Shown: positions 13,701 through 64,000 of the stretch, piece after piece
How positions within the stretch are numbered: the stretch's first letter is position 1
Layout of the letters: each line of letters starts with the position of its first letter
Source of the DNA: Eledone cirrhosa
Lineage: Eukaryota
Direction of reading: 5' to 3'
DNA length: 64,000 nt
Assembly: GCA_964016885.1 (NCBI GenBank)
Contig: OZ024757.1
Coordinates: forward strand, 33,480,001 to 33,544,000
Program-made: the position numbers and the translations under genes
The notes under the pieces: generated by a model
Databases searched by the model: none
The model's input: the letters and a program-made list of their open reading frames with translations, nothing else
What the model was told of the DNA's origin: nothing

Positions 13701-16700
13701 CAACTTCTTTTTTCATCTTTTAACTCTATAGCATTTACATTACTCTATATTTACTATTTTGTGGTAAAAGCTTTATCATACATAATTATCTGACATAGTA
13801 TCGAATCTACAAGATTTTGTTATTTATTTTGAGAACAATATCTTAAAAAAAATATTGGTATGAGTAGCCGGTTATGACCAGTTTGAACAATGCTAAAGGG
13901 TTATAGGTTCACACTATTTTATAAGCTATTTTATAATATCTCAGTGCATGAGCACATCGTTATTTACTTTTTTTGTTTATTCTGTCTAGCTTTGGGAATC
14001 GAATCTTCCTGATATCTTTGATGTGCGGTTCCACTTTACTGAAATAAGCAAGAATTTATGTGATGTAAGTACATTATTATGTGTGGTTTGACTTTCTTGA
14101 GTGGTCTCGGTCTTAGTCAGGCAAAGCCTTTCCTCACTTAAAAAACCTTCAAGCACAAGCATCGCTTGATATGTGACATTTATTGTGATGCTCGGCCATT
14201 ATAACTAAAAGGCCACATCCATGATGCTCATGCTTAAGTATCAAGTGATTACATTACTCAAAATTGAGTTGCAGTCATCACATATATATATATATATATA
14301 TATTTATATATATAGGGTGGGTGCAAAGAAACTATATAACTTGTGACCTACTGTGACCACTTGTCATAACAACTTCATATTTAGGCAAGATGGAGCCGTT
14401 CTTCCTTTTGCATATACTGTCCGTGAATGACTTGGTTGTCGAGGTCCACATGAATGGTCAGCAAGAAGCCTTGACTTAACACCATGTGATTTTTTCCTGT
14501 GGGGGTGGGGGACGAAGGAAGAAATTTATAACTCAAAACCAAAAACTGACTCAATTGGAAGGACACACATATGTCATATTCTGACCAACATACTGCTTGA
14601 GTTCCTGATGAAGTCAGTCGAGGATATACCTAGACGATTTACAAACACTGGTGGACAACACTGATGCCTGTATTTCTACTGAAAATCGACCAATGATTAA
14701 TAAAACTATTAGCAATTTTAAATAGAGTTTCTTTCCACTCCCCCTGTATATGTCTCTGTTTTGTCATGACAATCGTTTATGATTTTGATAAACTCTGATG
14801 ATTCCTAGGGTTTGTACTGACTAACAGCAGATTTTTGAATTAAATAATTTGCTGTTAAATGTACATTTTTATAGGAAGAAACAATTGTCAGTAATTAAAT
14901 GTCTTAAACTTTTAAATTTGGTTTGTAATTACAATGCAATTGTATATTGGATCTGCTTGATTCAATTATCATAGCATTGACCTATTTTTTACTATAAATA
15001 TATATATATATATATATATATTGGAAAATGTGTGAAATCCTTGGTATAGTTAGGTATATTAGAAAAAAGGAAATGAATGACTTCACTTGTATTTCTAAAC
15101 AATTTAATTATGATATTATAATTTTACAATTTGATTTTGTAGATCTTGTAAGTTCTTTGTTAACTTCGGTGGGGAGATTTTTTAAAGATTCCTGGTTAAC
15201 TTTTCAGATCAGTTTGACAATTGTCACCAATGAATGCGAGAAAGTTAACCAGGAATCTTTTAAAAATCTCCCCACCGAAGTTAACAAAGAACTTACTAGA
15301 TCTACAAAACCAAATTGTAAAATTGTAATATTATAATTAAATTGTTTAGAAATACAAGTGAAGTCATTTGTTTCCTTTTTTCAAATATATATATATACAC
15401 ACACACACTGCACTTCTACCAATATTGTTTTCCTCCTCCTACTCCTCCGTAATCTTAAACTTCACAATTTTTCTCATTCTAGGATTTACCAATATCATAC
15501 CGTGAATATGTAAGACGGCGACTGACTTACGGAAGGCCAAATTGGACAGAATTGTTTAATGAAATTGTAGCATCACATCCCACGTAAGTAATTTCTTATA
15601 CTGTTTAATTCTTCTGAAGCTGGCACAGGTTGTGCAAAATCCAGAGCTTATCCTAGTTTCATGTCAATGCAGCATGGCTGAATGGTTCAGAAGTTTACTT
15701 CACAGACATTAGATCCCAGGTTTGTTCCTACTTCCTGGCATCGTGGGCAAGTGTCATTTGCCATAACCTCGGGTCGTTGACATACTCACACACACACACA
15801 CACATATATATATGTATTCAAAGGTTTAATATAAGTAATTTATATATAAAACCTTTGAATAGCACTACATATATATGTAATACACTTCTATCATATTAAC
15901 ATGCACATCTTTCTCACCACCATTTTGAACTGCTTTTTTGAAATGTTTGTACTTTGTAGGATGATTTTATGCATTGATGTTCCTATTGTATTTTCTCTCT
16001 GTGAATTAATAATAAACATTCTAATAAACTCTGATGAAACCTGTTATTACACACAGGCAGAAATGACTGTCAGTTTTAAAATGTTTCAATCTTTGGTGTC
16101 ATTTAAATTTTAATGTATAACAGCTCTGCATGACCCTTGCTGCATTGAGCTACAAATCAACCTGTAAATCAGTATACCATTAATATTATAACTATAATAT
16201 TGTTTCTACTTTTGGCACAAGGCCAGAAATTACCCAGTGCATTACTGGTACTTTATTTTTATTGACCCCATAAGGATGAAAAGCAAAGTTAACCTCGGCA
16301 GGATTTGAACTCAGATCAGAAAGGGGCGTAACTCTGTGCTACAAAGCATGTTGTCCGACCCTCTACCGATACTGCCAAACCACCACCCTATTATAACTAT
16401 AATATCAATACTAATATTATATATATATATAAATATATATAACCCATGCTAGTGTGGAAAAATGGACGTAAAACAGTGATGATGCATACACAATCCACAA
16501 ACATAGCTTTGTTAAAGTCTAGTAAAAAACCTAATATTACCCTGCCATTTGTACCAGATTGAGATTATAAAGAGAGATATGATGTTCAACTGTTTTTAAT
16601 CTATATTTTCAGACATCGAGTTGGTGTTTTTGCTTGTGGACCTAAACAACTGACAAAAGATGTTAACAACCAATGTTGGCGAAAATACTCACAAAAGACT

Positions 16701-62861: not shown

Positions 62862-64000
62862 CTAAACATTTCCCCCAAACATAGATATTATATACTCTTT
62901 ATTAAAAATAACATTAAAACCTCATTCTCTACAACACCTAACCTAGCTAGCCACATCACATTCAGTAACCATCATAAACTAAGACAGTTTAACTCCCACA
63001 CCGCGGTACCACCACCCGTATCAAATACACCACGCCACTACACCAATACTTACTCTAGTAGCACACCTCCCCCATCTAATCCTTCTAACACTGACCAACC
63101 GCTTAGGTTAAACTACCCTACTCTCACTAACCGCAGAAGCAACTGCAACTGCCGTTACCCTAATGATTGCCCACTAAATGGACACTGCCTGACACCCAAC
63201 ATAGCCTATAAGTGCACGGTTAAAACTGCTTCGAATACCAGCTCCTATATCGGGTCTACCTCTCACCTTTTTAAGGTACGCTATAACGCGCACTCTTTTT
63301 CCTCCCGAGACCCTAACAACAGATGTTCGACATCTCTAGCTAGGCTCATTAAAAACCTTAAATTAACCAACATTGAACACTTACTAACATGGGATATCTT
63401 AGCTAGGGCCCAACCGTTCAATGGACGAAGAAAATCTTGTGATCTCTGTATTACCGAAGCATATTACATAACTCTATCACGACCTCTACCGATTAACGAT
63501 AGAACAGAGGTAACTATTAGCTGTCAACATCGAAGGGCTAATACCTTCGCCAACAGAATATTTGACCCAACATAGTCATCTGGCCCCATATTTACTTGTA
63601 ACTAATAAGTTAAATAGCCATAACTAACTTAGATAATTATAAGTTACCTCCCCTACATTGTCTCTCAATTAAAAAATTAGCACTTAACTATAAACTACCC
63701 ACAATTTCTAATCTCTCGAGGAGTTACTTCCCCTGAAACCACCCTTTAATTAGTAAGGTAAACATGTCCATAGGCGGCCATTTTGTTACCCATAGGCAGA
63801 TCTCACACAATGCAGCCTCGACAGAAGAATACTGCTTTATTATGGCAGACAATTGATACACCCAGGACACCATAGTGAAATAACAATATATGGAACATTA
63901 TATTATGTAACATTCTTTCCTTATTTTAATTTATATTCCTTTGCAGTTCCGATGAGCCGCACTATCTTTAATTATGTTAATTATTTTCAACTGAACCAGA
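62862..64000 (+). mobile_element. 5'-truncated Penelope-like retroelement (C-terminal GIY-YIG type) with 3' UTR/pLTR running off the window
   Basis: Begins at the edge of (TA)n; RT-thumb and GIY-YIG frame 62874-63575; CCGATGA box at 63949-63955. Confidence 0.88.
62874..63575 (+). pseudogene. PLE RT C-terminus + linker + GIY-YIG endonuclease, 233 codons open, no start codon
   Basis: [23 protein letters not shown]...[24 protein letters not shown]...SYIGST...FKVRYNAH...TSL...WDIL...CDLCITEA...INDRTE...CQHR...*. Confidence 0.88.

Follow-up and report, generated by a model that had tools for sequence, protein, structure and literature searches.

Hammerhead motifs in a 64-kb stretch of the Eledone cirrhosa genome lie in the 3' ends of 5'-truncated Penelope-like elements

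The stretch analyzed here, designated the window, is a 64-kb (64,000-nucleotide) part of the 3.0-Gb assembly of an animal, Eledone cirrhosa (GCA_964016885.1, contig OZ024757.1, forward-strand positions 33,480,001 to 33,544,000). TA repeats make up 14.6% of the window versus 5.1% of a genome sample, which consisted of 40 stretches of 10 kb (400 kb, about 0.013% of the genome) taken at round-number positions on 21 contigs. The original prediction, which was made from the letters of the window, had placed type I hammerhead ribozymes at 14 sites and had attributed them to several non-autonomous, retrozyme-like families mobilized by TA-targeting Penelope-like elements (PLEs) such as one at 62862. 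Thirteen of these sites are members of repeat families. The exception, at 56835, had been listed as a degenerate or partial hammerhead; it reads TTGATGA, has no C3 and is without a second copy in the genome. The view that several families carry PLE-type hammerheads was borne out, and about twelve were distinguished. The motifs are very probably the hammerhead-bearing 3' ends (pseudo-long terminal repeats, or pseudo-LTRs) of 5'-truncated copies of these PLE families, most of them of the Hydra clade, each of which likely moved itself into (TA)n.

At the right edge of the window, family P is represented by a 5'-truncated frame (62868..63575, plus strand) that encodes a CxCx5C linker and a GIY-YIG-type endonuclease without a reverse transcriptase (RT), and the frame at 62862 had been recognized correctly as a PLE endonuclease. 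It is followed by its 3' untranslated region (UTR) and hammerhead (63576..64000, plus strand), with the core CCGATGA at 63949, a stem II of about 95 nt and a CAATTG insert in stem III. This motif, which had been taken for a partial one, is merely cut by the window edge; its stem II, insert and cleavage site lie up to 61 nt beyond the edge, where the motif is complete, and its short 3' end and TA repeats lie about 185 nt beyond. Plus-strand 3' ends were also found for family C (14770..14990; core 14795, stem II of 76 nt, CAATTG insert, with (TA)11 from 14999), for the A-like subfamily A3 (24480..24650; core 24562, TATATA insert, impaired stem I, then (TA)23), and for family E (37843..37977; a minimal hammerhead with core 37861, a CG insert and a 2-bp stem I, then (TA)18). 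A family G 3' end with its tail (15860..16414, plus strand; core 16031) is interrupted by another repeat at about 16202-16389, and its insert, TGACTG, is a decayed version of the CAGCTG/CGGCTG of the family. On the minus strand, family B contributes a long (tail) end at 20027..20298, with core 20216, a TGCGCA insert and TA runs on both sides. For the minus-strand motifs the prediction had given the left ends; their cores begin at 20216, 31718 and 41652.

The remaining insertions combine inverted pieces of one family. The family F copy (23779..23973, plus strand) consists of a minus-strand inverted tail piece (23779-23855) and a body that runs to the short end, with core 23875 and a 7-nt insert. 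Its short end is adjoined, at 23974-24010, by the 3' half of a further minimal hammerhead of the CG type. A 125-amino acid (aa) frame over 23875 was considered as a gene and rejected; it is not kept in related copies and spans the insertion edge. The family A copy (39355..39589, plus strand) likewise joins a minus-strand inverted tail piece (39355-39416) to a body that reaches the short end, and its hammerhead (core 39492, TATATA insert) has one broken stem II pair. The family D copy (31557..32142, minus strand) is a minus-strand body to the short end, with core 31718, an 81-nt stem II and a CAATTG insert, accompanied by inverted long-end pieces at 31952-31989 and 32014-32142. An inverted pair of family A2 (41548..42003) has a short-end arm with its core at 41652 (minus) and a long-end arm with its core at 41815 (plus), with a TATGTA insert. 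A family B insertion (52288..52592) joins a minus-strand short-end body, with core 52386, to an inverted long-end arm (52463-52592); its GAAA is lost, in keeping with the degenerate motif predicted at 52326. This insertion, together with fragments, lies inside about 18 kb of degenerate TA/TATG microsatellite (44600-62860) that has the family P copy at its right edge. The core-like sequence at 35843 had been called degenerate or partial; it is in fact an inverted pair of family X (35713..35930) cut at the core, with GAAA at 35863 (plus) and 35826 (minus) and a tail on the left arm, and intact copies of the family have a 4-bp stem III. A family H inverted pair cut inside stem II (39618..39816) had been missed. 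Longer family H copies elsewhere have a TTGAGAA or CTGAGAA core, of which the former matches the published U3-A8 variant, as well as a 5-bp stem I and a long, near-palindromic stem III. Family H is very abundant (e.g. L010, L067, L263 and L246): the retrieved loci contain 71 copies and the 400-kb sample 11, most of which end within stem II. A TA-flanked palindromic element at 39110-39300, with a similar end sequence at about 35965-35995, is possibly another inverted PLE end.

Motif frequency was assessed with a type I hammerhead descriptor (CYGANGA core, stem II, GAAA, short stem III, UH, stem I) that is blind to decayed copies and to the X and H types; for its strict version the control in the window was block-wise dinucleotide shuffling, with 200 shuffles for each of two block sizes. 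The strict descriptor found five cores in the window (14795+, 20216-, 24562+, 41652- and 41815+) versus 0.025-0.04 in shuffles, which never held more than one. The relaxed descriptor also found five (14795, 20216, 31718, 41652 and 41815) versus 0.03, and jointly the two cover 14795, 20216, 24562, 31718, 41652 and 41815. The sites at 16031, 23875, 37861 and 39492 failed both descriptors, yet they are mutated or minimal members of genome-wide repeat families that share this layout. In the 400-kb sample, the relaxed descriptor found 32 motifs versus 0.16 in shuffles, a density of about 80 intact-looking hammerheads per Mb. Adjacency to (TA)n was as predicted: a (TA)5 or longer run lay no more than 200 nt downstream of 29 of the 32 motifs, versus 19% of random positions. 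The motifs fell into 18 sequence clusters. Self-complementary stem III inserts had been predicted for most sites, and 23 of the 32 inserts in the sample were perfect palindromes, although the 7-nt insert at 23875 is not palindromic. The palindromes were of many kinds (TATATA, TGCGCA, CAATTG, CTAG, CGATCG, CGCGCG, CGGCCG, CATATG, CTGATCAG, CTAATTAG, CG and AT). These excesses leave next to no room for chance motifs or foldback DNA transposons (miniature inverted-repeat transposable elements) in AT-rich DNA. Such transposons would resemble the inverted pairs, and Rfam returned no match at its gathering score in 10000-44000; of its 710 weak matches across the whole window, the best 150 paired microRNA models with TA repeats. 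However, neither origin fits the palindromic inserts, the unequal and fixed arm ends or the frames with RT and endonuclease found in cis with the motifs, both described below.

Extrapolation of the 32 motifs, which are clumped and come from 0.013% of the genome, gave a total of about 240,000, with a bootstrap range of 135,000-375,000. The genome likely holds roughly a quarter million hammerhead motifs, for which self-cleavage is predicted. Pairing was assessed in rows gathered by core and insert, without a pairing filter; the rows are related copies, so that the exchanges are not independent events. Stem I was 87-99% paired over six positions in the TATATA type (76 distinct rows) and 99-100% paired over three positions in the CAATTG type (67 rows). 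Pairing in stems I and II was preserved across T-A/C-G/G-C exchanges, as had been proposed from the differing stems of the window families. A 1x1 mismatch near the base of stem II is itself conserved, with 1% pairing between neighbors paired at 93-96% in the TATATA type, and stem II ranges from 14 to 103 nt across families. The conserved core, three helices and covariation of a type I hammerhead are all present. A-to-I editing was rejected as the source of the helix variants, since sense-strand A>G changes (0.46-1.2%) showed no excess over T>C changes (0.7-1.5%).

Ten of the 12 families continue upstream, on the same strand, into Penelope-type coding sequence of their own, which was found by searching with the endonuclease or upstream DNA of each family. 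For family P, the hammerhead of the family lay downstream on the same strand at 30 of 30 endonuclease loci, and a 727-aa frame at locus L062, which contains both RT and endonuclease, has a C-terminus 85% identical to the frame at 62868-63575. The copy at 62862 encodes the endonuclease only, matches the C-terminus of the 727-aa frame, and belongs to a family whose loci all reach the hammerhead; it is therefore a 5'-truncated member of family P. The hammerhead of family A lay about 1.1 kb downstream on the same strand at 18 of 20 endonuclease loci, and that of family B lay downstream on the same strand at 19 of 20, with a nested family D copy between in one. A suspected link of the endonuclease near family B to family D was dropped, as these 19 loci assign it to B. 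All four family B loci that were retrieved (L228-L231) carry an intact 821-aa frame with RT and GIY-YIG endonuclease, and three of the four are direct tandems of hammerhead, open reading frame (ORF) and hammerhead. The unit measures 3,854 bp, occurs in partial tandems, and comprises a tail that serves as leader, the 821-aa frame, a 1.1-kb 3' UTR and the hammerhead. At least nine of 150 listed loci contain the 821-aa frame, with endonucleases 99-100% identical; family B is young and intact.

In family D, an endonuclease was found upstream at 4 of 20 loci, and RT plus endonuclease at all three extended loci (L225-L227). Family A2 has its own endonuclease upstream at 8 of 15 loci, five of these with the hammerhead in view. 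An 87%-identical copy of the A3 type at 24562 lies 1.5 kb behind its own RT and endonuclease frame in L243. For family X, an endonuclease was found upstream at 4 of 25 loci, frames with RT and C-terminal endonuclease at L361-L363, and hammerhead-ORF-hammerhead tandems at two of four extended loci (L361 and L363), with spacings of 3,068 and 4,596 bp. Family X had been considered a true mini-element on account of its short copies, and this was abandoned once longer copies reached full frames. A broken Neptune-type frame (RT, zinc-finger linker and endonuclease) lies upstream of family E at one of four extended loci (L221). Decayed RT and endonuclease remnants lie upstream of family F at 5 of 15 loci, and a decayed endonuclease upstream of family C at 2 of 15 (L347 and L359). 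PLE families were also seen to insert side by side in terminal TA runs, forming nested clusters (L014, L045, L093, L095 and L282). Such nesting is frequent, and adjacency alone does not prove linkage. Beside one family X insertion lies an RT of another PLE type, a 471-aa frame (L364:2-1414, minus strand) that contains the motifs DKSG and KDHK, and other family X copies (L074, L164 and L247) carry a TATA-box-like stretch about 25-30 nt upstream of stem I, a possible pseudo-LTR promoter.

Families P, A, B and X have endonuclease domains that share 34-48% identity with one another, and named homologues of the element protein, with cephalopod, cnidarian and echinoderm records among them, are 33-44% identical to it. 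Pfam matched neither the window endonuclease nor five other window frames, and only two sub-threshold matches were obtained for the 727-aa frame; the proteins were therefore identified as those of PLEs by homologues and motifs.

These coding links bear on the proposal that the short units are non-autonomous retrozyme-like families, each with a small and possibly circular RNA of its own, mobilized in trans by a PLE like that at 62862. Most copies are indeed short (100-400 bp) with clustered 5' ends, and family G, the eleventh of the twelve families to be examined for a coding link, lacks a firm ORF link. Animal retrozymes have, moreover, been reported as derived from PLE pseudo-LTRs (bioRxiv 10.64898/2026.07.22.740005). 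We nevertheless consider this origin highly improbable, with coding sequence upstream in ten families and little sign of the expected repeats. Among 433 occurrences of core-bearing motifs in 1.68 Mb of overlapping loci, a single same-family, same-strand pair lay less than 700 bp apart, with a TA run between its members. Short head-to-tail arrays of 150-450 bp were not found in these loci or in the window, and Tandem Repeats Finder reported no repeat of period 40 or more across any window site. Two marks of non-LTR retrozymes, head-to-tail hammerhead repeats and a non-coding family, were not seen. The element at 62862 is itself 5'-truncated, lacks an RT and is cognate only to the hammerhead at 63949, so that its proposed role as mobilizer of the other families falls as well. 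The short units are 5'-truncated 3' ends of PLEs and not non-autonomous retrozyme families, and each family was likely moved into (TA)n by its own RT and GIY-YIG protein.

The families have two fixed 3' ends, a short end about 20-125 nt past the predicted cleavage site and a long end 70-175 nt beyond the short one. The mapped ends lie 51-61 and 140 nt past the cleavage site in A, 55 and 140 nt in A2, 53 and at least 125 nt (135 nt in full) in B, 62 and 213 nt in D, and 125 and 298 nt in P; family E has a single end only. These ends abut TA in 54 of 60 cases in A, 31 of 34 in A2, 46 of 52 in B, 15 of 26 in D and 22 of 26 in P. The tail is the stretch between the two ends, and in tandems it forms a leader that runs into the frame of the next unit (L228, L312 and L313). 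Of the 44 listed inverted pairs that diverge and carry a hammerhead in each arm, 42 combine a short with a long end, or 41 of 43 once an insertion seen twice is removed (A 11/12; A2 10/10; B 14/14, with one insertion counted twice; D 5/5; P 2/3). In A2 the matched arm was long by selection, as the query contained the tail; the other arm was short in all ten. The window copies that begin at 23779, 31557, 35713, 39355, 39618, 41548 and 52288 show the same pattern. At polymorphic sites the two arms disagreed at 0 of 62 positions in A2 (36% for unrelated copies), 7 of 150 in P (40%) and 2 of 19 in D (39%). Both arms of an inverted insertion derive from the same source lineage; gene conversion could contribute to their agreement, and an origin of the arms from separate source RNAs was not supported.

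Arms that share source alleles are explained equally well if priming occurred once, at the long end, with the complementary DNA (cDNA) then folding back to copy itself and joining the target by microhomology at an AT-rich short site; short ends do sit on ATAT-like stretches. Many copies, however, have a short end only and no long arm in view, and in several window copies (39355-39416 and 23779-23855) the long-end arm falls short of the full tail, as is readily accounted for by two primings. A PLE protein also cuts and extends both strands in vitro, with two internal starts (PMC11167929). Fold-back copying is possible, though we think it somewhat unlikely as the source of the inverted units.

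The GAGT motif of the prediction, T[T/C/A]GAGT[A/G]C, is real. It lies in the optional tail, about 20 nt past the short end, where it forms the 3' half of a small hairpin. In A, A2, B and X this hairpin reads ACTC...GAGT, whereas C, G and P have GCTC...GAGC, with both sides of the pair exchanged. The RCTC...GAGY hairpin was found in seven of nine families, with one copy examined each, and was not seen in D and F; in family H, ACTC...GAGT is visible by eye. Predicted folds of the tail hairpin are weak (-5 to -11 kcal/mol), and this stem is not always formed.

By analogy with the Poseidon element PAc of Anolis, where both strands are cut and extended by the protein, which begins at two internal sites, one at either end of the tail (PMC11167929), the following course would account for insertion at two primings. 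The protein of each family would bind its own RNA in the tail, with the RCTC...GAGY hairpin as the probable site, and nick the (TA)n target on both strands, and reverse transcription would start at the short and the long site, one per strand. Most cDNAs would halt after no more than a few hundred bases, in many cases in the structured hammerhead itself, where the X and H copies are cut, and the two cDNAs would be joined by microhomology. Such early stops and joining would produce the short solo and inverted units that resemble mini-elements. The hammerheads are predicted to cut tandem transcripts into units. Those with a 2-bp stem III would, judging from PMC4209133, require a dimer and cut only when paired via the palindrome; the predicted palindrome-mediated duplexes have 8-10 bp and -3 to -14 kcal/mol. 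Families X and H, with stem III of 4-6 bp, may work as monomers. A bolder version, which we regard as speculative and doubtful, is a two-headed complex. In it a protein dimer would sit on a tandem transcript whose hammerheads are paired via the family-specific palindrome, and would prime both (TA)n strands from two RNA sites set by the hairpin. The palindromes would act as an identity code that prevents cross-pairing among dozens of co-resident families, and the genome would hold the largest and most varied natural hammerhead set described.

Several of the Hydra clade features were compared with the published definition, which comprises RWK and DKT motifs, a CxCx5C linker, no CCHH, CxxC and CxH, hammerheads and (TA)n insertion (PMC8557442). 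A single ORF with RT and C-terminal GIY-YIG endonuclease is present in the 821-aa frames of B (L228-L231), the 727-aa frame of P (L062) and the X frames (L361-L363). The N-terminal motifs are RIRWK and MSDKTK in P, RLRWT and HSDKTN in B, and RIRWR and SDKTK in X (DKT in place of DKG). For family A these motifs lie outside the frame examined, and its endonuclease part agrees with the definition. The CxCx5C linker, the absence of CCHH, and CxxC and CxH around E and N are found in the P, A, B and X endonucleases, with one mutated residue in some single copies; the GIY-YIG core has no second cysteine, and CxxC..E and N..CxH stand in natural frames. Preference for (TA)n, the pseudo-LTR hammerhead, and tandem, inverted and tailed insertions were all seen. 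Length below 3 kb, a descriptive and not a diagnostic trait, was not: B measures 3,854 bp and the X spacings are those given above. By these motifs, families P, A, B and X are of the Hydra clade. Family E is Neptune-like, judged by its linker, which has the CX2-5CxxC arrangement that precedes the endonuclease in that clade (PMC8557442).

Some observations weigh against the reading of the motifs as 3' ends of self-moving, mostly Hydra-clade PLEs. The Hydra assignment rests on motifs, and the loci used for linkage and arm counts were best search matches and no random copies. The coding link of family G is weak (1 of 15 loci and 0 of 5 further loci), those of C and E come from two loci and one locus, and families G and H could be non-autonomous. 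Minimum-energy folds of single copies recovered the hammerhead fold only partly, and in the Anolis element cleavage is dispensable for insertion in vitro (PMC11167929). Arm discordance was higher in A (9 of 44 versus 38% for unrelated copies) and in B (7 of 39 versus 37%), where it was confined to one site with the minor allele in the query.

Elsewhere in the window, many copies of one SINE-like repeat lie at 16188-16447, 28148-28510, 31149-31361, 37316-37816, 40062-40259 and 42505-44079, often within (TTA)n; at other loci the repeat also interrupts the 3' UTRs of PLEs. The interval 8200-9500 holds an uninterrupted (GCGT)n run of about 1.2 kb, flanked by (GT)n. The frames at 11984-12481 and 33564-34085, which have no Pfam match, presumably resemble C-terminal parts of RTE-type LINE reverse transcriptases.

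The dispersed hammerheads of truncated PLEs, the opposite-strand pairs and the one-sided tails are already in print. What goes beyond the literature found is the motif count, the long stem II, the family-specific palindromes, the two fixed 3' ends, the rule of one short and one long inverted end, and the covarying hairpin. A limited literature search found no paper with a hammerhead count this large for a PLE-rich genome, with the short-and-long rule given as a count, or with the RCTC...GAGY hairpin. The available passages of the main text of PMC13282606 mention neither Hydra nor ribozymes, and some of the families may already sit in its repeat library or in the supplement of bioRxiv 10.64898/2026.07.22.740005. 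At the density given above, with 18 clusters in 400 kb and none caught by Rfam in 10000-44000, the motifs constitute a large natural library of long-stem-II variants. The one-short-one-long rule and the common hairpin lend genome-scale support to two-site internal priming, which has so far been shown in vitro in a single Poseidon element; they also indicate where the RNA signal may lie. The young and intact family B suits biochemistry on the role of the hammerhead in PLE transposition, in a Hydra element.

Among the closest known systems is the Hydra clade (Craig et al. 2021, PMC8557442), one of whose listed families, Hydra-1_Obim, comes from Octopus bimaculoides. Shared with the clade are the single frame of RT and C-terminal GIY-YIG, (TA)n insertion, a type I hammerhead near the 3' end, partial tandems, inverted 5'-truncated copies and a tail at one end, and the family X layout, CTGATGAT...TGAA-ACAG/CTGT, is as in the published table (PMC8557442). 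The published elements are mostly below 3 kb and of a 'small number' of families, with stem II of about 12-24 nt and tails of 30-40 nt, whereas here B reaches 3.85 kb with a 1.1-kb 3' UTR, families are many, copy number is very high, stem II spans 14-103 nt and tails measure 70-175 nt. Family E shares with the Neptune clade its C-x4-C-x2-C linker (CSRPRCNTC, in the one broken locus L221), its CG minimal hammerhead and its TA target. Its RT and endonuclease are probably of Neptune type as well.

The minimal and atypical PLE hammerheads described previously are mostly single motifs from truncated PLEs or close opposite-strand pairs (Cervera and de la Pena 2014, PMC4209133). Dispersed singles, opposite-strand pairs, a palindromic stem III, an extra base after A9 and the U3-A8 core variant, here in family H, are common to both sets. 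That study reported about 2,000-9,000 motifs per genome with a narrower descriptor, compared with about 240,000 estimated here, and stem II is often far longer here, with its conserved 1x1 mismatch near the base. Metazoan non-LTR retrozymes (Cervera and de la Pena 2020, PMC7229834) also have type I hammerheads, low GC and very high copy number, but are non-coding tandem repeats of 150-450 bp, whereas the units here are solo or inverted and continue into coding PLEs. The axolotl has up to 120,000 retrozymes (PMC7229834), a figure obtained with a different descriptor and not strictly comparable with 240,000. Poseidon PAc (Frangieh et al. 2024, PMC11167929) belongs to a different clade, and starts inside the ORF in an AC-rich stem-loop, whereas the proposed starts here lie upstream of the ORF beside the RCTC...GAGY hairpin; its mechanism was shown in vitro, while the present elements are known from sequence. 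Both have two discrete 3' ends that bound a tail downstream of the hammerhead, at the start of the next unit, and both have AT-rich targets. The elements of this genome are thus of a known kind, at an unusual scale.

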